In this document: in pieces, positions 38,192 to 58,540 of the stretch
Position numbering within the stretch: the first letter of the stretch is position 1
Layout of the letters: the number at the start of each line of letters is the position of its first letter
Origin: a virus
Strand: one strand, 5' to 3'
DNA length: 64,000 nt
Virus record (IMG/VR): IMGVR_UViG_3300010371_000001
Span: 38,274-102,273 of that record
Position numbers and translations under genes: made by a program
Notes under the pieces: model-generated
What the model was told of the DNA's origin: nothing
The model's input: only the letters and a program-made list of their open reading frames with translations
Database searches by the model: none

Positions 38192-38277
38192 CTCTTCTCT
38201 CTTTAGGTTTGTTCATCGTTTGCTGACGGTTTGTTCATGCCGCGTCGCCAGGCCCGCGCCGTTGCGGGGTGTCTCGT

Positions 38278-46787: not shown

Positions 46788-48443
46788 CTACATCGGTAAC
46801 ATGGGCTGAGCAATCCACCCTAGCGTCTGAACCTTTGAAGGCGTGTCGAACGCCTTGCCGTCTAATAAGTCTTGAATCGTCCTGATTTGCAGGCGATGAT
46901 ATTCTTTGCCAAGATAGGTATATGTCCCAGCAGAAGCTGCTTCGGATATCATGCCCTTTGTTGGCTCTTGTAGACAGATGAACCCGGCCATTTCGGAATT
47001 GGGTTCCCGTTCCAAAACCCCGCGTAATTCACGCACAAATGCAGGTGTTAGTTTTCCGCCCTTGACGGATATGACCATATTTTTGAGGCTATCCCCTGTT
47101 TCAAAGTGGATGCGGCCATCCACTCCCAGATCGCCAGAATGTTTCGTGCTAGAAAATCCCCCGGCAAGCTCCACTGACCAATGCTGAAATTGCCGTGGAT
47201 CGCGGTTAAAGAGATCCTGAGCGCCTTCAACACTCAAGGGAACACCGCTAACTTCATAGTGTTCACCTTCTTGCAATCCGTAGCGACGGAAAAGGACATC
47301 ACGCACAAGCTGAACGGAGAGAATAGCGATATCGCATCCTATCCATTTGCGCCCAGACAAATGTGCGGCATAAATTGCCGTCCCGCAGCCACAAAACGGG
47401 TCAAAGACCACATCTCCCGGATTACTGCTTGCGGTGATGATGCGATCTAGGAGAGCGATAGGCTTTTGCGTAGGGTAGCCCAGTCGCTCGGAGGCCGATG
47501 CCTGAATTGGTGGGATATCATCCCATAAATTGCCAACTTTGGGAGGGGCCACCTCATTGAGATAAATCTTGCGGAGTGGGCGGCCCTTGCTATTCCAGGC
47601 TAGTTTGCCTAGTCGGTCAAACTCCTCAAGTTTCTCTCGTGTCATCATCCACCCATATTGGGGTGTGTAGCCCTTATATTCATAGATCAAGTTGGGTCGT
47701 ATCCCTAACGCCGCATTGCGCTCAATATCGTGTAATCGGTATCGCCTTCCATCCGGTTCCACGAAACGATAAAAATTCTCTACATAACGCTCATCACGCT
47801 CCTGAGTAGGGGGGTAAAATACGTAGCGATTGGTTTTGCTATAAAAGAAAATCGTATCAGTGATGTCACCTAGCCTGCGTGAAGTTGTATTATGAGCGGT
47901 CGTGCGCTTCCAAATAATCTCATTGCGGAAGTTCTGATGCCCGAACACTCCGTCCAGGATGACCTTGATATAGTGGCTAGCAGTAGAATCGCAATGAAGA
48001 TACAGGGAACCAGTTGGTTTAAGGATGCGACGCATTTCAAACAAGCGGTAAGACATGTACACCAGGTACGCAAGTAACCTTGGTTGTGTATGCCTAAGTG
48101 CATTGATCCAGGTTGCCCAAAAGGCTACCAAATCCTCATCAGCCCCGTACTCCCGAAATGACTGGGGCATATTGCGCACCATTTCTTCCTTTTCCGGGTC
48201 CATATCCCAGGCATCACAAAACGCTTCTTCCTGCTCTGGTACAGGTAGACCAGTGAGATTTTTGTAGATTAAGTTGTAGTTTCGCTGGCTATTGAATGGG
48301 GGATCGAGGTAAATGAGATCGACGGAAGCACTGGTCATTTCTCGCATAATGGTAAGGTTATCACCGTAAAATAAGTGGTTGTTTCTTATCCGCGTCTCCA
48401 CATCGAAGATGCCTGGTAGGTGTTGTGGATGCCTTTTGGTCAC
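46788..48443 (-). CDS. N6A/N4C DNA methyltransferase with C-terminal Mrr-like domain
   Basis: DLIYLDPPF, YPTQKP, DPFCGCGT (beta-class order); C-terminal D.GVDG..ISVKGG. Confidence 0.9.
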   Translation of the reverse strand: MTKRHPQHLPGIFDVETRIRNNHLFYGDNLTIMREMTSASVDLIYLDPPFNSQRNYNLIYKNLTGLPVPEQEEAFCDAWDMDPEKEEMVRNMPQSFREYGADEDLVAFWATWINALRHTQPRLLAYLVYMSYRLFEMRRILKPTGSLYLHCDSTASHYIKVILDGVFGHQNFRNEIIWKRTTAHNTTSRRLGDITDTIFFYSKTNRYVFYPPTQERDERYVENFYRFVEPDGRRYRLHDIERNAALGIRPNLIYEYKGYTPQYGWMMTREKLEEFDRLGKLAWNSKGRPLRKIYLNEVAPPKVGNLWDDIPPIQASASERLGYPTQKPIALLDRIITASSNPGDVVFDPFCGCGTAIYAAHLSGRKWIGCDIAILSVQLVRDVLFRRYGLQEGEHYEVSGVPLSVEGAQDLFNRDPRQFQHWSVELAGGFSSTKHSGDLGVDGRIHFETGDSLKNMVISVKGGKLTPAFVRELRGVLEREPNSEMAGFICLQEPTKGMISEAASAGTYTYLGKEYHRLQIRTIQDLLDGKAFDTPSKVQTLGWIAQPMLPM

Positions 48444-50238: not shown

Positions 50239-50553
50239 ATGAGAGTAGAATTTCACCATTTTGAAATCGCGCAAACGTTTGAAGATGGCCTTTCTCAAAT
50301 AGAGCAAGAGGCATTTACGAAGTGCCTGCGCTATATCGGGGGACACGTCAACCCTGATAGGATACGCACTTTTTTCTTTCGCACTTTGGATGCTATTGTT
50401 CTATTTGCCTATCGAGACACGCAGTTTATAATTACCTATCAATGGATGCAACGCACTGTTCCTAACGATGCCACTCTCCTGATAACCCTCACTCATGCTA
50501 TGTACACAAAAGATAGTAGTCATGCATTTGATCATTTACAAGATCCCCTTTAG
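50239..50553 (+). CDS. Putative toxin partner of the Panacea protein
   Basis: 104-aa low-GC ORF with AAGGAG RBS directly downstream, followed by a hairpin at 50554-50582. Confidence 0.5.
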   Translation: MRVEFHHFEIAQTFEDGLSQIEQEAFTKCLRYIGGHVNPDRIRTFFFRTLDAIVLFAYRDTQFIITYQWMQRTVPNDATLLITLTHAMYTKDSSHAFDHLQDPL

Positions 50554-50589
50554 ATCGATGGGGAGGTAGGCTACCCATCGATCACATAA

Positions 50590-51243
50590 CTACGGCTTAT
50601 ATACCGGCCTCAACTCGTTGCCATGCTTGCTGCAATCGCCCTGATGCCCGCCACTCAGGCTATAGGTTCCGTCAACGCACTCATTCATAAATCCTGTGCC
50701 ATTCCAGAACGAGGCGATACAGTTGAACCAGTTGCAGATGTCCGCTGGGGGACTGTAGGCCAGGTGGCCAGTATTGGTGAATGTGTAATCGTAAGGATTG
50801 CCGTTGATCGCCGGATACTTTGGTGCTGGCTTCGGCGTTGCTGTGGGCGGGTGGCTCACGGGCTGCGTCGCCACAGGTGCGGGTGTTGATCCCGGCTTGG
50901 GAGTGGCATCCACGGCGGTATGCGTCGCTGTTGGACTCTGCGCTTGTGGTGTGTCTGTCGCACTGGTGACAATGACACCCGGCGAGGTGGAAGATCCACC
51001 GTCATTGGCTTGCTGGCTAGTGGTATCGGTTGTGCTGGCGTTGCTATTCAGCGCGCCGAAGGCACAGCAGGATATCAGTAAAATGCCAGTGATGCTGCCG
51101 ACGATGATCTGTGTGCGGCGCGTTTGCCCCTTGTACCAGGGCCATGCATGAGTGCGCAATTGCTGATATGTCCAGGCGCAAGCGCGCCATGTCATGCGGA
51201 ATAGCCAGACGGTCGCATTGATGCAGAAACGCAAGAAAGCCAT
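50590..51243 (-). CDS. Membrane-anchored Pro/Thr-rich protein with Cys-rich C-terminal domain
   Basis: TM helix, P/T linker, NPYDY..C..FNCI..C.DG.YS.SGG..CS.HG. Confidence 0.7.
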   Translation of the reverse strand: MAFLRFCINATVWLFRMTWRACAWTYQQLRTHAWPWYKGQTRRTQIIVGSITGILLISCCAFGALNSNASTTDTTSQQANDGGSSTSPGVIVTSATDTPQAQSPTATHTAVDATPKPGSTPAPVATQPVSHPPTATPKPAPKYPAINGNPYDYTFTNTGHLAYSPPADICNWFNCIASFWNGTGFMNECVDGTYSLSGGHQGDCSKHGNELRPVYKP

Positions 51244-51483
51244 GATGCACTCCTTGATGAACGAACGAACAATCAGAGTTCCATCATAGAGTGACAATTC
51301 GGCGCTGTCGAACGGCGTAGTACAAGACGGCTATAGAGCGCTGTGTGAGTGGTGTAATGGGGAATGTAAGGACTCGAGGATAATAGCCGATAAAAATTAG
51401 CACATACATTCAATTACTTGTTCATTTGTCCTAATAACCAGCGGATATATATGCTGACTTTTGAAATAAACATAAAATCCCTA

Positions 51484-51542
51484 TTGACAAGTGGCCATTA
51501 CTTAGGTAGCATGGTGTCCTCATCCATCACATCATCAGGAGG
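51484..51542 (+). promoter_or_regulatory. Orphaned promoter (TTGACA-17-TAGCAT) and AGGAGG RBS, the left flank of the IS607-like element
   Basis: No start codon lies at RBS distance in the present arrangement; both signals fit ATG 56579 if the element is removed. Confidence 0.65.
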
Positions 51543-51595
51543 CATTATAACTAGTCCCTTGTTTTGTACCCAAATCTACCCTTGTATGGTAGAAT

Positions 51596-52180
51596 ATGAG
51601 GATGAAACTGAGTGTATACGCAAGGCAGGTAGGCATCACCTACAAGACCGCCTATCGGATGTGGAAGGCAGGGCAGCTTGACGCCTATCAGTTGCCGACG
51701 GGGACCATTATCGTGCAAGAGGCACAACCACCTGTGACCGGAGTGGCGACCTATGCGCGGGTCTCATCTGCGGACCAGAAAGCCGATCTGGTGCGACAGG
51801 TAGAACGCTTGCGCGACTATGCCGCCGCCAAAGGCTATATCCTCACACGCGAAGTCCAAGAGATTGCTTCTGGCGTCAACGATAGCCGCCCGAAGCTGGC
51901 GTCATTGCTCAGTGATCGGCGCATCGGCTTGATCATCGTGGAACATCGGGATCGTCTCACTCGCTTTGGTTATAACTATCTTCGCTTACTCTTGGAACAG
52001 CAAGGACGGCGCATTGAAGTCATCAACCTTGCCGACAATGGCAAAGAGGATCTGATCGTGGATCTCGTCTCGATCATCTACTCGTTCAGCGCACGCCTGT
52101 ATGGACAGCGACGAGCCAAGCGCAAGACCGCCGATATCCACACCATCCTTGCCAGTGACACCCACTCATCGGTAGCATGA
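51596..52180 (+). CDS. tnpA: IS607-family serine recombinase TnpA
   Basis: N-terminal MerR-like HTH followed by YARVSS..DL.RQ..EIASG..DRLTRFG..SFSARLYG.R. Confidence 0.95.
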   Translation: MRMKLSVYARQVGITYKTAYRMWKAGQLDAYQLPTGTIIVQEAQPPVTGVATYARVSSADQKADLVRQVERLRDYAAAKGYILTREVQEIASGVNDSRPKLASLLSDRRIGLIIVEHRDRLTRFGYNYLRLLLEQQGRRIEVINLADNGKEDLIVDLVSIIYSFSARLYGQRRAKRKTADIHTILASDTHSSVA

Positions 52181-52182
52181 CA

Positions 52183-52220
52183 ACGCCCTGAGCCTTTCCG
52201 CTCAGGGCGTCTTTTTATTT
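52183..52220 (+). terminator. Intrinsic terminator after tnpA
   Basis: ACGCCCTGAG..CTCAGGGCGT followed by CTTTTTATTT. Confidence 0.8.
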
Positions 52221-52234
52221 GGTTGTCTCGCTAC

Positions 52235-52615
52235 CTACGCATACATGCGTGGTCCGGTATCCCGCCGCATCGGTATGGCGGCAGCGCGTTCTGCATCCGC
52301 CGCATCCATTGCCGCCGCCATGATGGCGACGCCCTGCTGCACATAGGCCGCATCCGCCGCCGCCGTGCGCTCCATAATCTCATGACGAGCAACGGCGCGA
52401 TGATGACAGTAGCGACCTGCCTTACCGGCGGGGCAAGAGCAAATCAGAGAGTAGCCTGCGATAATAACCGTGTAGCACCCGTCACCGCTAGCCGACGAAA
52501 CGGCGATGAACTTCTGCCCGGTCGCCTTGATCGTGCCATGCCCCACCACGTGAACCTCTTTGACCGTCGCGCGTGCCAGCGCCTTTTCGTACTGTGTCTG
52601 CTGATACTGTGTCAT
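52235..52615 (-). CDS. SWIM Zn-finger protein
   Basis: YTV..CSCPA..CHH; promoter TTGCTA-17-TATAAT (52710-52682). Confidence 0.75.
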   Translation of the reverse strand: MTQYQQTQYEKALARATVKEVHVVGHGTIKATGQKFIAVSSASGDGCYTVIIAGYSLICSCPAGKAGRYCHHRAVARHEIMERTAAADAAYVQQGVAIMAAAMDAADAERAAAIPMRRDTGPRMYA

Positions 52616-52798
52616 GATTGGAAGTCCCCTTGTCTTGATGTTAAGCCCTGAGTGGTCGCATCACTCATAACTTACATCTAAATTATACCATACTTAATAT
52701 GGTATAGCAAGGGAAATGGGACCAAAGTTACACCTATCTTGCATCGCTCTTTCTTGCGGGGTATAATTTTACTGTAATTCTACTGTAAGGAGGATTCA

Positions 52799-53059
52799 AT
52801 GACGCTTGCCGAATTACGCAAGGTCGTATCTCTCACGCAAGAAGAGGTCGCTCAATCGTGCGGGGTTAGTAAAACTACCGTATCAGCATGGGAGCGGGGT
52901 ACAGCAATTCCAAGGCTACGACATGTGCGCGCATTAGCAGAAGCATTGCACACCTCGATCAAAGATGTTCAATCGGCGATAGAGGCACAAAGAGAGGCGA
53001 GCATCAATGCGACAGATGCCCGCCGAAAAGCCCGCGCGGGGACTTCCATCAGCGCGTAG
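52799..53059 (+). CDS. XRE-HTH regulator 1 (cargo)
   Basis: LTQEEVAQSCGVSKTTVSAWERG; AAGGAGG RBS; TTGCAT-17-TATAAT promoter. Confidence 0.9.
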   Translation: MTLAELRKVVSLTQEEVAQSCGVSKTTVSAWERGTAIPRLRHVRALAEALHTSIKDVQSAIEAQREASINATDARRKARAGTSISA

Positions 53060-53225
53060 GCACCCTCAGCATAGCACATAGAAAGGTTAAGAAACTTTAA
53101 CCTTTACTTTCAGGCCAGGCCAGCAAAGGGTTGAGAGCATAGTACCATAGCCCAAAGTCTTTATAAGGACTTGATAAAGTTCCTGGGCTAGGTTATAATG
53201 CTTTTATCCTGATGAAAGGAGAAAG

Positions 53226-53441
53226 ATGACGCTCAGAGAGCTGCGTGAAAAGCGATCCATGACACAAATGGAAATCGCTGTTGCTGTTGAGGTTTCACTT
53301 CCCACAGTGGGCGCTTGGGAAAAAGGAACCAGCAGACCGCGACCCATTCATGTCAGAAAGTTAGCGACACTGTTTGGAGTGAGCATTGAAGAAATGCAAG
53401 CAGTCCTTGATACTACTGCTCAATCCGCATCCAGTTCGTAG
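53226..53441 (+). CDS. XRE-HTH regulator 2 (cargo, paralog of regulator 1)
   Basis: MTQMEIAVAVEVSLPTVGAWEKG; TTGATA-17-TATAAT promoter (53171-53199). Confidence 0.9.
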   Translation: MTLRELREKRSMTQMEIAVAVEVSLPTVGAWEKGTSRPRPIHVRKLATLFGVSIEEMQAVLDTTAQSASSS

Positions 53442-53542
53442 TTAATGTTTAGCATGTCGAAAGCGGCTGTTCAGTTTCCAGGCCGACAACCGCTCTCACC
53501 AAAACCACATTCGAGAGGAATCTCGAAAGGAGCCTTACCCAT

Positions 53543-54049
53543 ATGGTAGCATATACCCCGGCGGTTGGCAATAAGCCGCCGATGACCGCTACGCCCGCAT
53601 GGCCCGTCAGTGTGCCAGCCATTCAAGAGCAACCCGCCACGCGCCGTATTTGCCCCACGTGTGACGGGCGTGGTGACACGCTCACGCATGGTCGTTACGA
53701 CACATGCCGCCCTTGCGCTGGCCTGGGTGAAATTATCCCAGACCGCGCCGTGTTCGCCCATGAATTGCTCGCTGACTTTCAGCGCCATATCGCCGTCCCC
53801 CTTGTCAGTGACACCACATCATCCACGTGGCTTGCCGATGCCCTTGACCAGGGCGCGACGGACCAGCAGTGGAATCTGCAAGACTGGCTGCAAATCTATG
53901 AGTTCGTCTGCTTCTATGCCCCACTGTACGAAGTGGCGGATGATGACGAAATCGCCCCGTATTGGCAGCCCGCCGCTCGGCGCTGTGTGAAGCGCATCAA
54001 CGCGTTCCTGCATGCCCAATGGGCAGAAGGGGTGGATGACGCGCTATGA
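53543..54049 (+). CDS. Zn-finger (CxxCxGxG) hypothetical protein (cargo)
   Basis: CPTCDGRG..CRPCAGLG; AAGGAG RBS. Confidence 0.65.
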   Translation: MVAYTPAVGNKPPMTATPAWPVSVPAIQEQPATRRICPTCDGRGDTLTHGRYDTCRPCAGLGEIIPDRAVFAHELLADFQRHIAVPLVSDTTSSTWLADALDQGATDQQWNLQDWLQIYEFVCFYAPLYEVADDDEIAPYWQPAARRCVKRINAFLHAQWAEGVDDAL

Positions 54050-54348
54050 ACCTGCCTCCACGTGGCCCCGCGCCCGTCAACCCGCAAATGGAGGCGTATG
54101 TGACGCGCATCGCCCCTGCCATTACTGAGGCGGTCGCGCTGATCCTCGTTTTGCAGAGCCAGCGCCGTGATCCCGCGCTGTACACCCCGATGGTTGCCCA
54201 CGTGGCAACCATCCTAGCCGTCTCGCGTCACATCTTCCACGTAGATGGCGCATCCAAGTCTGCCATGACGCAGATCGACGCGCTGCTTACCAAGATGCAA
54301 AAGGTTCAGGATATGGCGCTTGCCGTCCTGAATCCCCCAACCGATTAG
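54046..54348 (+). CDS. Hypothetical protein (cargo)
   Basis: ATGA-coupled to the previous gene. Confidence 0.55.
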   Translation: MNLPPRGPAPVNPQMEAYVTRIAPAITEAVALILVLQSQRRDPALYTPMVAHVATILAVSRHIFHVDGASKSAMTQIDALLTKMQKVQDMALAVLNPPTD

Positions 54349-54361
54349 GGAGAATCACCCG

Positions 54362-54628
54362 ATGTTTCCTGAATTGACCGTCCCTCTTGCTGTATTCATG
54401 GATGCAGCCGTGCGTCACCCAATGAAGGTGCTTGGTTGCGGCACGTGGGAGAGCGGTTGCGAGTTTTATCTGATTGCTGATACCGAACACGCTGCCCTTG
54501 TCACCGCTGGTGAGCATGACTACACGTGTTCCTGTGGTGGCAAGTTGAGTGAGCCATGCATACATGTCGGCACAATGGTTGCCCGGTATTTCGGTTACTC
54601 CCCCATCCTGAAAGGAAACCTGCCGTGA
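54362..54628 (+). CDS. Small SWIM-like protein (cargo)
   Basis: YTCSCG..PCIHV; GGGAG RBS. Confidence 0.6.
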   Translation: MFPELTVPLAVFMDAAVRHPMKVLGCGTWESGCEFYLIADTEHAALVTAGEHDYTCSCGGKLSEPCIHVGTMVARYFGYSPILKGNLP

Positions 54629-55224
54629 GTAACGCCGCCGCCCCTTTGTATGAAGTCAAGGGACCACCACTTTCGGTGCCAGCCAGGGACCACACGCCCC
54701 TTGCGCCAAGTAGCATCACTCATACGCCTGTGGATGGCATGAGCGATATCGAATATGCCATTAGCACCCTTGGCACCGCCGATCCCGGCAATATCGGGCA
54801 TTTCCTGGGCGATCAGTTTGCCAATCGGACGTATCCTAAGCTCATCACCTTGCCGGAAATGGAGCAGATGGCGTATGAGAGCCTCCATTTCCTGAGCATC
54901 CCTGCCATCACGGCTTACGCGCATTGGTGGCTTTCGCCCGATTTCCACCGCTCACCTAACTTGACGGATGATGAGGCGTTGGCACTGGGCAAGTTCGTGA
55001 GCCGATTCATCACCGAGTATGGATGTGCAACGGTGGAACTCTTGGAGATGCAAATGTCGGATCTGTTCGACATGGGCGAATATGATAACATGTTCGCTCT
55101 TGCCCGTCTGCATCCGGCCTATGCCCGCTACTGCATCGCCCACATTGTCCGTCTGTTCCTGACGAAAAGCTGCCACATTCACTTCAATGTGGTAGAAGAT
55201 GTCATTGCGCACGCTGGGTTGTAG
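54625..55224 (+). CDS. Hypothetical protein (cargo), directly upstream of tnpB
   Basis: GTGA overlap, AAAGGA RBS; its stop overlaps the tnpB RBS. Confidence 0.6.
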   Translation: MSNAAAPLYEVKGPPLSVPARDHTPLAPSSITHTPVDGMSDIEYAISTLGTADPGNIGHFLGDQFANRTYPKLITLPEMEQMAYESLHFLSIPAITAYAHWWLSPDFHRSPNLTDDEALALGKFVSRFITEYGCATVELLEMQMSDLFDMGEYDNMFALARLHPAYARYCIAHIVRLFLTKSCHIHFNVVEDVIAHAGL

Positions 55225-55235
55225 GAGCTAACCAT

Positions 55236-56537
55236 ATGGAGATCGTCCGGGGATACAAGACTGAACTGGATTTGAATAACAAGCAGCGCACGGCATGTCT
55301 CCAGCATGCGGGGTGTGCCAGATTCGCCTACAATTGGGGACTGGCACGCAAACAAGCGGCAATGGCAGCACGCAAAGCAGCGGCAGATCCTAAGTCAGTC
55401 AAGATTCCCACCGCCATCGATCTCCATCGGGAACTGAATGCCTTGAAATCCACCGAGTTCCCTTGGATGTACGAAAGCTCAAAATGCGGACCCCAAGAGG
55501 CGTTGCGCGACCTGGACACGGCATTCAGCAACTTCTTTGCCAAGCGTGCCAAGTACCCCAAGTTCAAGAAACGCAGCAAGGGCATCGGCTCGTTCACGCT
55601 GACGGGAACCATTCATGTTGGTCCGGACTGGATTCAGTTACCCGTCATTGGGAAGGTGCGATTGTTTGAACATGGCTACTTGCCCCAAGACACGGATCTG
55701 CATACCAAAGACCGCAAGACGCTCAAGAAACGTGAGAAGAAAGGGCGCATCATCACAGGGCCAGCCCACTACCTGAGCGCGACTGTATCTGAACGTGCGG
55801 GACATTGGTTCGTTTCTGTGCAAGTCAAAGACATCGTTCCTGACCCTGAACCAGCGACGGGTGAACCAATTGGCGTTGACTTGGGCATCAAAACATTAGC
55901 CGTATGTTCGGATGGGCAAGAGGTTCCTAATCCCAAGGCGTTGCGGGGCAACCTGGGCAAACTCAAAAGGACACAGCGCCATCACAGTAAGCGCAAGAAA
56001 GGTAGTAACAACCGCAAGAAGTCCAAACAAGAAGTAGCCCGCGTCCATTATCGGATTGCCAATATCCGAGAAGATGCTTTGCATCAGGCGACCGCGAAGA
56101 TCACGGCAAAAGCCAAGCCGCCATCCAAGCGACCGCAAGCGATCATCTTGGAAGATCTCAACGTGGCGGGCATGCTCAAAAATCACAAGCTGGCACAGGC
56201 GATAGCGGACGTGGGGCTAGGGGAGTTTCGCCGCCAGATGAGCTACAAATCTCTCTGGTATGGCAATCGGCTGTATCTGGCCCATCGTTTCTTCCCTTCA
56301 ACTCAACTGTGTTCACAGTGCCATCGTTTGCCCTCGGTGCCACTGGATTTGAGCGTGCGGACCTATGAGTGTGAGCATTGCGGCCTGGTCCTTGACCGGG
56401 ATCTCAATGCCGCACGCAATTTACTGTGGCTGTATACCGCTAGTTCAGCGGAAATCGACGCCTGTGGAGAGATCGTAAGACCAATGGTGCTTGCACTAAA
56501 GGCAGTCTCGTTGAAGCAGGAACCGGATGCCACTTAG
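55236..56537 (+). CDS. tnpB: RNA-guided endonuclease TnpB
   Basis: HTH_OrfB N-terminus, RuvC D (GVDLG), E (LEDL) and D (DRDLNAA) all intact; CxxC..CxxC Zn finger. Confidence 0.95.
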   Translation: MEIVRGYKTELDLNNKQRTACLQHAGCARFAYNWGLARKQAAMAARKAAADPKSVKIPTAIDLHRELNALKSTEFPWMYESSKCGPQEALRDLDTAFSNFFAKRAKYPKFKKRSKGIGSFTLTGTIHVGPDWIQLPVIGKVRLFEHGYLPQDTDLHTKDRKTLKKREKKGRIITGPAHYLSATVSERAGHWFVSVQVKDIVPDPEPATGEPIGVDLGIKTLAVCSDGQEVPNPKALRGNLGKLKRTQRHHSKRKKGSNNRKKSKQEVARVHYRIANIREDALHQATAKITAKAKPPSKRPQAIILEDLNVAGMLKNHKLAQAIADVGLGEFRRQMSYKSLWYGNRLYLAHRFFPSTQLCSQCHRLPSVPLDLSVRTYECEHCGLVLDRDLNAARNLLWLYTASSAEIDACGEIVRPMVLALKAVSLKQEPDAT

Positions 56538-56590
56538 GCGTGTCCTATTTGGGTAAATTCTGGAGAACGGACATCCACATGGCCAGCAAC
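56430..56590 (+). ncRNA. TnpB omega-RNA (scaffold to 56570, guide from 56571)
   Basis: It overlaps the tnpB 3' end and the element right end, as established for TnpB systems; the boundaries are approximate. Confidence 0.6.
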
Positions 56591-58045
56591 CAGTTGTACT
56601 ACGGCGACAACCTCGACATCTTGCGTAAGAAAATTCATGACGAGACGATAGATCTCTGCTACATTGACCCACCGTTTAACTCCAAACGCACCTACAACCA
56701 AATTTACAACAATATCGGTACTGAAGATCGCGCGCAATCCCAAGCATTTATCGATACCTGGACATGGGATGATCGCGCTATTGCCGGATTCCAAGAAATC
56801 CTCAGCAATGATCAGGCGCGATTTACCAGTCAGACAGTTGAGCTAATCAAGGGACTGTATCATGTTTTGGGTTTTGGCAGCTTGTTAGCATACTTGGTGA
56901 GTATGACTTTGCGTGTCACAGAAATCCACCGTGTTTTGAAACCGACTGGAAGCTTCTACCTTCATTGCGATCCAACCTCAAGTCACTACCTGAAACTGGT
57001 ACTCGATGCGATCTTCGTACCTACTGGCGGTGATTTTCAGAATGAGATTGCTTGGTGTTATGGCTCAGGAGGGGCAAGTAAACGGCATTTTTCGAGAAAA
57101 CATGACATCCTGTTTTTCTACACAAAAGGAGCATACTACACCTTTAACGTGGATGGTGTGAGAGAGCCATATAGTTCACCTGAGAAAGTAGAATTCAAAG
57201 TTATTGGAGATAAGCGGTATCAGAGAAAAAACCCTCTTGGTCGCATACCGTTTGACTGGTGGCAAATGCCAATACTGACAAATACTGCCAAAGAACGGCT
57301 TGGCTACCCCACACAAAAGCCAGAGGCATTGCTTGAACGAATTATTGAGGCAAGTTCTAATGAAGGCGATACTGTCCTTGATGCCTATTGCGGCTGTGGA
57401 ACAACGATTGCTGTAGCACAACACCTGAAACGCAAATGGATCGGTATTGATATCACCTATCAGGCAATTGCACTCATTTTAGAGCGAATCGAGGATCAGT
57501 TTAGCAAAGAGGCGCTTGACGCCATTACGCTTGATGGCATTCCAAGTGATATAGATTCAGCCAAAGCTCTCGCTCATAAGCAGGATGATCGGGTGCGCAA
57601 GGAATTTGAGAAGTGGGCCGTCTTGACCTACACCAATAATCGGGCCATCATCCATCAAAAGAAGGGTGCAGACGGTGGGGTTGATGGCGTTGCCTACTTT
57701 TTGACCAGTCATTCAGGCAATGCCAAGATCATCTTTCAGGTGAAATCGGGCAAAGTAGGACGTGGCGACATTGCAAAATTACGTGGGGATATGCAACGAG
57801 AGTCAGCAGCGTTGGCGGTATTTATTACACTTGAACACCCTACTGGACCTATGATCGCTGAAGCAAAGGCCGCTGGACGCTATTATCATGAGATCATGGA
57901 CAGGCACTACGATACGATTGCGATTATGGCTATCCAAGATATCCTTGATCGCCAACGCCTCAGCATTCCTCTGAATTTTGAAGTCATTCGATCCGCACAA
58001 CGGAAAGCTTCCGAGGTTCAACTCTCACTTGTCGATAGCATGTAG
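56579..58045 (+). CDS. Second N6A/N4C DNA methyltransferase with C-terminal Mrr-like domain
   Basis: NQLYYGDNL, YIDPPF, YPTQKP, DAYCGCGT; D.GVDG..FQVKSG. Confidence 0.9.
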   Translation: MASNQLYYGDNLDILRKKIHDETIDLCYIDPPFNSKRTYNQIYNNIGTEDRAQSQAFIDTWTWDDRAIAGFQEILSNDQARFTSQTVELIKGLYHVLGFGSLLAYLVSMTLRVTEIHRVLKPTGSFYLHCDPTSSHYLKLVLDAIFVPTGGDFQNEIAWCYGSGGASKRHFSRKHDILFFYTKGAYYTFNVDGVREPYSSPEKVEFKVIGDKRYQRKNPLGRIPFDWWQMPILTNTAKERLGYPTQKPEALLERIIEASSNEGDTVLDAYCGCGTTIAVAQHLKRKWIGIDITYQAIALILERIEDQFSKEALDAITLDGIPSDIDSAKALAHKQDDRVRKEFEKWAVLTYTNNRAIIHQKKGADGGVDGVAYFLTSHSGNAKIIFQVKSGKVGRGDIAKLRGDMQRESAALAVFITLEHPTGPMIAEAKAAGRYYHEIMDRHYDTIAIMAIQDILDRQRLSIPLNFEVIRSAQRKASEVQLSLVDSM

Positions 58046-58096
58046 GTGGAACAGGCGAGCGATTAGGAATAGAAGTGAAGGGGTGATATTACCCCT

Positions 58097-58540
58097 TCAT
58101 TCATCCATCGGCACAATCGTGAAATTCCGCTGCTTCACACTGATCGCTTCATAGAAGTAACTGGCATTATCATAGAACAGGTCTACCTCAGGATCGGCCA
58201 CGTCTTGAAAGAATGCATAGTCATCGGCAGAGAGATCCTCCTTGATCTGGTCAACCAATGTTGCGTCACTTATGGCATTTTGCAGAGGTGCCAAGCTATC
58301 ATCATCGGCGTTGACACTTTCAAGTGACATTGCCACCTGGCCGGTAAGGAATGCACGCAGCGTGTCAGGATGCCTCAGTAATGCATCCAGCAATGCGCGC
58401 TCGCGGCGAATGAGTTCATCAGTATTCTCAATATACTTCATGCGCTCCTGTGACGCTGCGATTACTTCCTCGTCAATCTCAGAGATGGCGATGTCGATAT
58501 CGAAGGTGACGCGAAAGGTGTGATGATTCAGGTTGCTCAT
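58097..58540 (-). CDS. Acidic hypothetical protein
   Basis: GAGGAG RBS; about 21% D+E by manual count. Confidence 0.65.
   Translation of the reverse strand: MSNLNHHTFRVTFDIDIAISEIDEEVIAASQERMKYIENTDELIRRERALLDALLRHPDTLRAFLTGQVAMSLESVNADDDSLAPLQNAISDATLVDQIKEDLSADDYAFFQDVADPEVDLFYDNASYFYEAISVKQRNFTIVPMDE

Follow-up and report, generated by a model that had tools for sequence, protein, structure and literature searches.

A probable cargo-bearing IS607-family insertion polymorphism at the Shine-Dalgarno sequence of a soil phage DNA methyltransferase gene

The closest described relatives of the locus reported here are IS607-family elements that encode the RNA-guided nuclease TnpB. For those with a RAGATH-18-type RNA, Ren et al. 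(2024, Cell Res, PMC11061315) give AGGAG as the target-adjacent motif (TAM) in 18 of 22 strains and GAGGG in 4 of 22, and guides of 20 nucleotides (nt). The IStron of Clostridium botulinum, a related IS607 element, is described as having a strict GG core, precise donor joints and a transposase target that is also the TAM (bioRxiv 10.1101/2023.11.20.567912); moreover, the guide-RNA scaffold of the C. botulinum element ends in ...CGG, so that the resident copy escapes cutting (Zedaveinyte et al., same preprint). Occasionally, TnpB transposons with a serine recombinase carry extra proteins with a helix-turn-helix (HTH) domain or of unknown fold (Altae-Tran et al. 2023, PNAS, PMC10691335); in PMC6563490, IS607 and passenger genes are mentioned in unrelated passages. 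Here we analyse a 64,000-nt window (positions 38,274 to 102,273 of the IMG/VR virus record IMGVR_UViG_3300010371_000001, a phage record of 102,273 bp with direct terminal repeats; all positions below are those of the window), in which a block comprising tnpA, seven passenger genes and tnpB lies between a phage DNA methyltransferase gene (hereafter the methylase) and its Shine-Dalgarno (SD) sequence. The block is probably a cargo-bearing IS607 insertion polymorphism in the GAGGG-containing SD of the methylase, with an incidental effect on that gene.

Two public soil metagenome runs contain parts of the stretch: X1, probably its source, and X2, which belongs to a separate study. X1 contains a 56.9-kb contig identical to the window. 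A 506-nt contig of X2 (record 8, depth 6.7) joins 51468-51541 directly to 56569-57000 and skips 5027 nt, with 0 mismatches to the window over 74 + 432 nt and one ambiguous base. Since this contig skips exactly 51542-56568, the tnpA-cargo-tnpB block is a single insertion or deletion. The occupied and the empty site are thus both found, as is expected of an IS607 element that moves as a unit; the block varies as one piece between presence and absence, and its termini are of the IS607 type. X2 has no other coverage of 51588-55045; its contigs farther upstream diverge by 5-7% from the window, and X2 therefore carries a distinct strain. Within the 102-kb phage genome there is no second copy of the element. 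A preliminary description of the window, made from the letters alone, had predicted an empty junction and had stated that an element-free relative with a different sequence upstream of the methylase would speak against it. The X2 relative has the identical upstream sequence, and the predicted junction exists in its contig, with three Gs at the joint instead of two: GAGGG is followed by the 8 nt of 56571-56578 and then by the methylase ATG.

Relatives of the element (L numbers) were collected from metagenome and genome scans with TnpB. The closest canonical copies, L145 and L146 from a Ktedonobacteria metagenome-assembled genome and L066, L092 and L067 from soil metagenomes, have TnpB proteins 83-90% identical in amino acids (aa) and TnpA proteins 73-78% identical, the latter range referring to L066, L092 and L145. 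They share with the window element the left-end motifs, the right-end terminus and a left flank ending in GGG; unlike it, they are about 2 kb long and cargo-free, and their tnpA 3' end overlaps the tnpB ATG. At the DNA level, the canonical copies match the window in two stretches, the first beginning at the left end (51548 or 51567) and reaching about 52106-52112, the second extending from 55235 to 56570/56571, with no homology in between; the blastn homology of these five copies, and also of L068 and L148, stops at 56570/56571. Indeed, tnpA abuts tnpB in 58 of 67 relatives (all loci), the closest ones included. The 3.1 kb of 52113-55234 therefore represents a gain of cargo, in the course of which the final ~20 codons of tnpA were replaced as well. 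With 3055 nt and seven open reading frames (ORFs) between the two genes, the window element departs from the tnpA-tnpB adjacency of IS607 elements.

The left-end sequence is conserved in L066, L092, L067, L068, L145 and L146, and TACCCAAAT within it is the 9-nt inverted partner of ATTTGGGTA at the right end. In more distant relatives this end-to-end inverted repeat co-varies at both ends, as judged by eye and without a statistic. The element therefore has the short subterminal motifs of IS607 elements (TACCCAAAT/ATTTGGGTA), with no long terminal inverted repeats. A ...GAGAACGG-type right terminus (motif YTRGAGRAYGG) is common to 37 unique insertion sites, the flanks of which diverge beyond it. 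A GGG run 57-58 nt ahead of the tnpA ATG precedes the left boundary in 17 of 27 unique relatives, against 1-6 of 27 in shifted control windows, and the commonest five-letter left flank is GAGGG. The target and TAM of this subfamily, as read from these flanks, is RGGG, often GAGGG. At the methylase locus, the empty allele has GAGGG ahead of the target, at the place of a TAM beside the left end, and cleavage of this allele is predicted. Three rearranged or decayed insertion sequence (IS) copies were also encountered: L068:2332-3841 has kept its left end and tnpB and lost tnpA, L067:5448-7335 has a frameshifted tnpA without its ATG, and in L065:797-1884 a tnpB with a GTG start lies behind unrelated genes.

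Both proteins of the core element are recognisable. TnpA matches NF033518 with 175.9 bits (cut-off 110) as well as PF00239, and aligns with the IS1535 TnpA structure (PDB 6DGB, E 1.9e-28) including the catalytic YARVSS motif; it has the N-terminal DNA-binding and C-terminal catalytic domains of an IS607 serine-recombinase transposase. TnpB matches PF01385, PF07282 and PF12323, scores 276 bits with NF040570 (cut-off 100) and aligns with ISDra2 TnpB (PDB 8H1J/8BF8, E 3e-48) over GVDLGIK, EDLN and DRDxNAA, so that the RuvC D/E/D motifs and the zinc-finger TNB domain are intact. In X2, a contig carries tnpB-like DNA, 87% identical, whose similarity starts exactly at the tnpB start codon.

A structured guide-RNA scaffold (omegaRNA, also termed right-end RNA or reRNA) is predicted to end at the right boundary. 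When the last 200 nt of 27 elements are aligned, they share a seven-helix fold in which the structure ends at the terminal CGG. Across the 27 sequences, 92.5% of the cells are paired, against 36-46% when the partners are slid; furthermore, 22 of 30 pairs show compensatory double changes, a value reached in 0 of 500 shuffles. Termini, TAM and structured RNA are thus shown by comparison to be common to many relatives. The predicted guide is placed at 56571-56590 because this segment lies directly past the scaffold end and because published guides are 20 nt long (PMC11061315). It is preceded by GAGGG in the empty allele and by ACGG in the occupied one. As in the ISFba1 group of RAGATH-18 elements (PMC11061315), TnpB is of the ~390-433 aa class, a RAGATH-18-like RNA lies at the right end, an AG-rich TAM lies beside the left end, and the guide begins directly past the right end. 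The reRNA described there is separate from the coding sequence, whereas the scaffold in the window shares about 100 nt with the 3' end of tnpB; the window element also differs in its sub-threshold Rfam score, its seven cargo genes and its soil-phage host.

Insertion beside an SD sequence is a habit of the subfamily. Among the 37 unique sites, 10 have an ATG-started ORF (at least 100 aa, or at least 30 aa when open-ended) beginning 3-9 nt past the element, whereas only 97 of 2626 RGGG sites (3.7%) in the flanks of the same loci satisfy this condition, although the control is generous in that internal Met codons are counted too. L070 and L087 represent the same site in related genomes, which leaves 9 of 36 independent sites (binomial P ~5e-6). 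L145 and L067, for instance, sit 6 and 9 nt ahead of a start codon, and the genes concerned are many and unrelated. The preliminary description had suggested that the element targets SD sequences, and as a property of the family this is borne out by the RGGG/GAGGG TAM and by these counts. The habit follows from the SD-like nature of the TAM, possibly helped by selection; in the IS607 literature that we searched, this link was not found spelled out. The conserved right-end tip (56562-56570, the same place in 37 relatives) carries a GGAG 5 nt from its end, and genes starting 3-9 nt beyond it therefore gain a replacement SD-like motif at a greater distance. The habit of inserting between a ribosome-binding site and its start codon predicts systematic effects on the translation of the downstream gene, and the window adds a clean, numbered case.

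For the methylase, the motifs listed in the preliminary description (TTGACA/TAGCAT, AGGAGG, ACATCCAC, ATG at 56579, GGAG and GTG at 56540) all lie at the positions given for them, and its claim that the insertion separates the gene from promoter and ribosome-binding site agrees with the X2 joint between 51541 and 56569. The comparison of the two alleles supports the view that the insertion cuts the methylase off from its strong SD and from the one promoter-like site upstream of it. The promoter-like TTGACA/TAGCAT site, which is included in the empty-site contig (contig start 51468), would be the methylase's own in the empty allele and would read into the element in the occupied one. The anti-SD duplex energy is calculated at -10.8 kcal/mol for the empty allele and -6.4 for the occupied one, and the SD-to-ATG spacing is 8-9 nt against 13 nt, the latter counted from the right-end GGAG. 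In the occupied allele the methylase would have to be transcribed from within the element, by read-through of the cargo/tnpB operon, and translated from this weak GGAG, so that its expression probably drops. A rewiring of the gene under the cargo operon is plausible because there is no strong terminator between tnpB and the methylase.

The following sequence of events would best account for these observations. An ordinary IS607 IS of about 2 kb, with left end, serine-recombinase tnpA, tnpB, omegaRNA and right end, would have taken up seven passenger genes, a block of 3.1 kb, at the tnpA/tnpB junction and so become the 5027-bp derivative. This derivative would then have inserted, or have been copied by TnpB-triggered homing, into the normal GAGGG TAM target of the family, which here happens to be the SD of a monocistronic methylase in a 102-kb soil phage, and would thereby have removed the promoter and strong SD of that gene. 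In co-infected cells, TnpB with a guide for the methylase start would cut the GAGGG-bearing empty genomes, its own copy being spared by the ACGG in place of the TAM, and such cutting would lead to the spread and retention of element and cargo alike. By analogy, the model is the one described for the C. botulinum IStron TnpA(S)-TnpB element (bioRxiv 10.1101/2023.11.20.567912): a serine TnpA that uses a GG core, joins precisely and duplicates no target sequence, one motif serving both as TAM and as target of the transposase (TGGG there, GAGGG in the empty allele here), a scaffold ending in ...CGG, a resident copy without TAM and the same homing. Unlike that IStron, the window element contains cargo and no group I intron was found in it (Rfam), and it is known from sequence alone.

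Several points weigh against the interpretation as a cargo-bearing IS607 insertion. The empty site is supported by one assembled contig of depth 6.7 from one run, at the level of contigs and not of raw reads, and from the two alleles insertion cannot be distinguished from loss. The C-terminal tail of TnpA is replaced, and its activity is predicted only. RAGATH-18 (RF03064) scores 31.7 bits at 56461-56522, below the gathering score of 44.9 (E 0.006), and a scan of 50500-58500 with Rfam gave no group I intron or other family besides this sub-threshold match. The 7 promoter-like sites in 51200-58300 are at chance level (7.3 +/- 3.3 in shuffles), so that the promoter match at 51484 taken alone is no better than chance. 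Finally, the right end is ...CGG and the left flank ...GG, with no target duplication, as in IS607 elements, but the two alleles overlap by 1 nt at the joint, where a clean GG/GG exchange by a serine recombinase should give 2 nt, and the occupied left flank reads ...GAGG followed by C where relatives have GGG followed by T. The 1-nt overlap could reflect a left core GC (51542-51543) facing a right GG, a combination that matches the published outcome for engineered GC-core donors of the C. botulinum IStron (bioRxiv 10.1101/2023.11.20.567912). It could equally come from a G-to-C change at 51543 following insertion, or from a one-G difference between the two phage strains.

Other readings of the locus were considered. 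Since the X2 joint comes from a single short contig (506 nt, depth 6.7), it might be a product of chimeric assembly or an unrelated deletion instead of a transposon-free allele, yet the break falls exactly on the termini that 37 relatives define independently, recreates both the family TAM GAGGG and the normal SD-to-ATG spacing, and has 0 mismatches on both sides, and we regard this possibility as very improbable. Equally improbable is the idea that there is no single element at all, and that native phage genes are flanked by two IS remnants or by a tnpA and a tnpB that each stand alone. The 3-kb gap between tnpA and tnpB is admittedly atypical, the two genes being adjacent in 58 of 67 relatives; the empty allele, however, lacks all 5027 nt at once with its boundaries at cognate ends, the left and right inverted repeat matches and co-varies in relatives, and TnpA and TnpB share L066, L092 and L145 as closest relatives. 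Two separate IS remnants were rejected on account of the single 5027-nt indel.

Other alternatives accept the element and give its position a function. The preliminary description proposed excision as an expression switch. In such a scheme, TnpA would excise the element precisely and at a useful rate within one population, which would turn the methylase and methylome on, and re-insertion would turn them off. Such a mechanism could draw on an intact tnpA, on two alleles that occur in nature with identical flanks, and on the precise, scarless donor joint left by IS607-type excision in a related element (bioRxiv 10.1101/2023.11.20.567912). The contigs lend the proposal no support, being occupied only in X1 and empty only in X2; the two states were seen in different samples and never together, and among the X1 contigs there is no empty or circle joint, although contigs drop rare variants. 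The third G speaks against it, as canonical excision using the present GGs leaves two Gs where the X2 allele has three; if the left core is GC and the right one GG, mismatched cores abolished excision in the published assay, which tested GG against TT (bioRxiv 10.1101/2023.11.20.567912). In addition, TnpB is predicted to oppose loss, since it would re-convert or destroy the excised allele, and TnpA alone is not expected to re-insert at exactly the same site. We consider a reversible switch improbable; if true it would matter for phage host range, but it is unsupported so far. Quite improbable, too, is a domesticated cassette, in which the two XRE regulators and the operon would control the methylase by read-through and the insertion would be kept for the new regulatory programme. 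The cargo operon, tnpB and the methylase are co-oriented, with no strong terminator between the last two, a promoter-like site lies within the cargo (53171-53199), and a GGAG is present near the right-end tip. This GGAG is, however, a weak SD 13 nt from the ATG, TnpB bound to its omegaRNA would cover the methylase start codon, and relatives insert before many unrelated genes, so that no special function is needed to explain the placement. Most likely the methylase is affected as a by-product of the cargo-bearing insertion, rather than by a regulated switch.

As a rule, IS607/TnpB elements are minimal, whereas here a 3-kb, seven-gene payload lies inside a unit that behaves as one insertion and whose empty site was recovered from nature. 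Cargo in TnpB elements is already known; what is unusual here is its size of seven genes together with the recovery of an empty site. The rare cargo-bearers of PMC10691335 likewise have HTH and unknown proteins, and the window differs in its seven genes within 3.1 kb and its natural empty allele. The locus is relevant to the way in which TnpB-type homing could move passenger genes between phages, and to the design of scarless cargo vehicles from such elements. A bolder extension, which we put forward tentatively and hold to be rather unlikely, is a phage-borne gene drive with a payload: TnpB, with a guide RNA that runs into the methylase start, would cut co-infecting phages of like kind that carry GAGGG-8 nt-ATG, repair would copy the 5-kb unit into them, the cargo of regulators and orphan proteins would sweep through the population, and the methylase would be silenced or re-timed as a linked side effect. 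The coordinates of all features are collected in Table 1.

Table 1. Positions of the features of the element, its cargo and its flanks in the 64,000-nt window
Feature	Position	Strand	Remarks
Promoter-like site TTGACA-17 nt-TAGCAT	51484..51512	+	TTGACA 51484-51489, TAGCAT 51507-51512; 10/12 matches
Shine-Dalgarno AGGAGG of the methylase, also left flank and TAM remnant	51537..51542	+	from sequence
IS607-family transposon with cargo, 5027 nt	51542..56568 (or 51543-56569, one G ambiguous)	+	from the X2 joint
Left end	51543..51601	+	holds TACCCAAAT (51567-51575) and extended -10-like TGGTAGAAT ahead of tnpA
tnpA, IS607-family serine transposase	51602..52180	+	alternative ATG 51596
Cargo block	52113..55234	.	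no counterpart in canonical relatives; 3.1 kb, seven ORFs
Intrinsic-terminator-like hairpin and T run after tnpA	52183..52220	+	hairpin 52183-52210; 11 pairs, 8 G-C
Cargo ORF, 126 aa, CxC...CxH motif	52235..52615	-	no function assigned
Cargo XRE-type HTH regulator 1, 86 aa	52799..53059	+	PF01381 E 2.5e-14
Promoter-like site ahead of HTH regulator 2	53171-53199	+	11/12 matches
Cargo XRE-type HTH regulator 2, 71 aa	53226..53441	+	PF01381 E 4.4e-13
Four packed cargo ORFs: 168 (CxxCxGxG-like zinc motifs), 100, 88, 199 aa	53543..55224	+	
tnpB, RNA-guided nuclease, 433 aa	55236..56537	+	RuvC and zinc-finger motifs present
Predicted omegaRNA/reRNA scaffold	56437..56570	+	ends at right-end terminus ...GAGAACGG; RAGATH-18-like core 56461-56522
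In-frame GTG upstream of the methylase	56540	+	just past tnpB stop 56535-56537
GGAG at right-end tip	56562-56565	+	13 nt upstream of methylase ATG
8-nt spacer ACATCCAC ahead of methylase ATG	56571-56578	+	from sequence; ATG at 56579
Predicted guide/target segment, 20 nt	56571..56590	+	covers methylase start codon
Phage DNA methyltransferase fused to Mrr-like nuclease-fold domain	56579..58045	+	488 aa, intact

The methylase matches PF01555 (E 4.8e-46) and PF04471 (E 1.4e-8) of Pfam. It is monocistronic, the upstream gene being divergent and the downstream genes lying on the opposite strand. Full-length relatives with 44-62% aa identity are present in 13 viral contigs, where the surroundings are unrelated and contain no tnpA, tnpB or cargo homologues, so that these loci are uninformative on the empty site; an exact search of viral contigs with the 22-nt left flank gave 0 matches. 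The phage has a further DNA methyltransferase gene at 46788-48443 (-), 33% aa identical to the one at 56579, and loss of the latter may therefore be buffered. The closest canonical IS copies, L145 and L146 (TnpB 86-90% aa), sit in a Ktedonobacteria genome bin; they hint at a Chloroflexota host, and the phage host is probably a member of the Ktedonobacteria.

Among the seven cargo ORFs, two encode XRE-type HTH proteins and five have no family match; PADLOC and NCBIfam returned generic HTH matches only. Apart from the 126-aa ORF on the reverse strand, the cargo genes lie close together in the same orientation as tnpB, and their stop and start codons overlap. The CxC...CxH motif of this ORF is one that we take to be SWIM-like, and the ORF has no match in Pfam, PHROGs, PADLOC or NCBIfam. 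For the 168-aa protein, matches cover the zinc motif only and occur in 2 of 169 genomes of the class. The 222-aa cargo ORF has no relative in viral contigs, and a search of 5.8 billion proteins with its 199-aa form recovered nothing but the protein itself. In 3 genomes that carry the closest IS copies, a search for the cargo DNA gave no match.

Single passenger ORFs between tnpA and tnpB were seen in four relatives, at L133:1906-3066 (387 aa, no domain named), L129:1286-1867 (194 aa, P-loop-like by eye), L125:5043-6014 (324 aa, LAGLIDADG-like by eye) and L140:1088-1558 (157 aa, no domain named), and the tnpA/tnpB junction seems to be a recurrent site of gene gain. Within the window, a 37-nt direct repeat with 73% identity links 52134-52170, in the replaced tnpA tail, to 53787-53823, inside the 168-aa ORF; it may be due to chance or be a trace of the joining of the cargo. 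An 18-nt inverted repeat (52672-52689 / 52760-52777, 83% complementary) looks operator-like; it lies in the divergent promoter region that separates the reverse 126-aa ORF from the first XRE gene.

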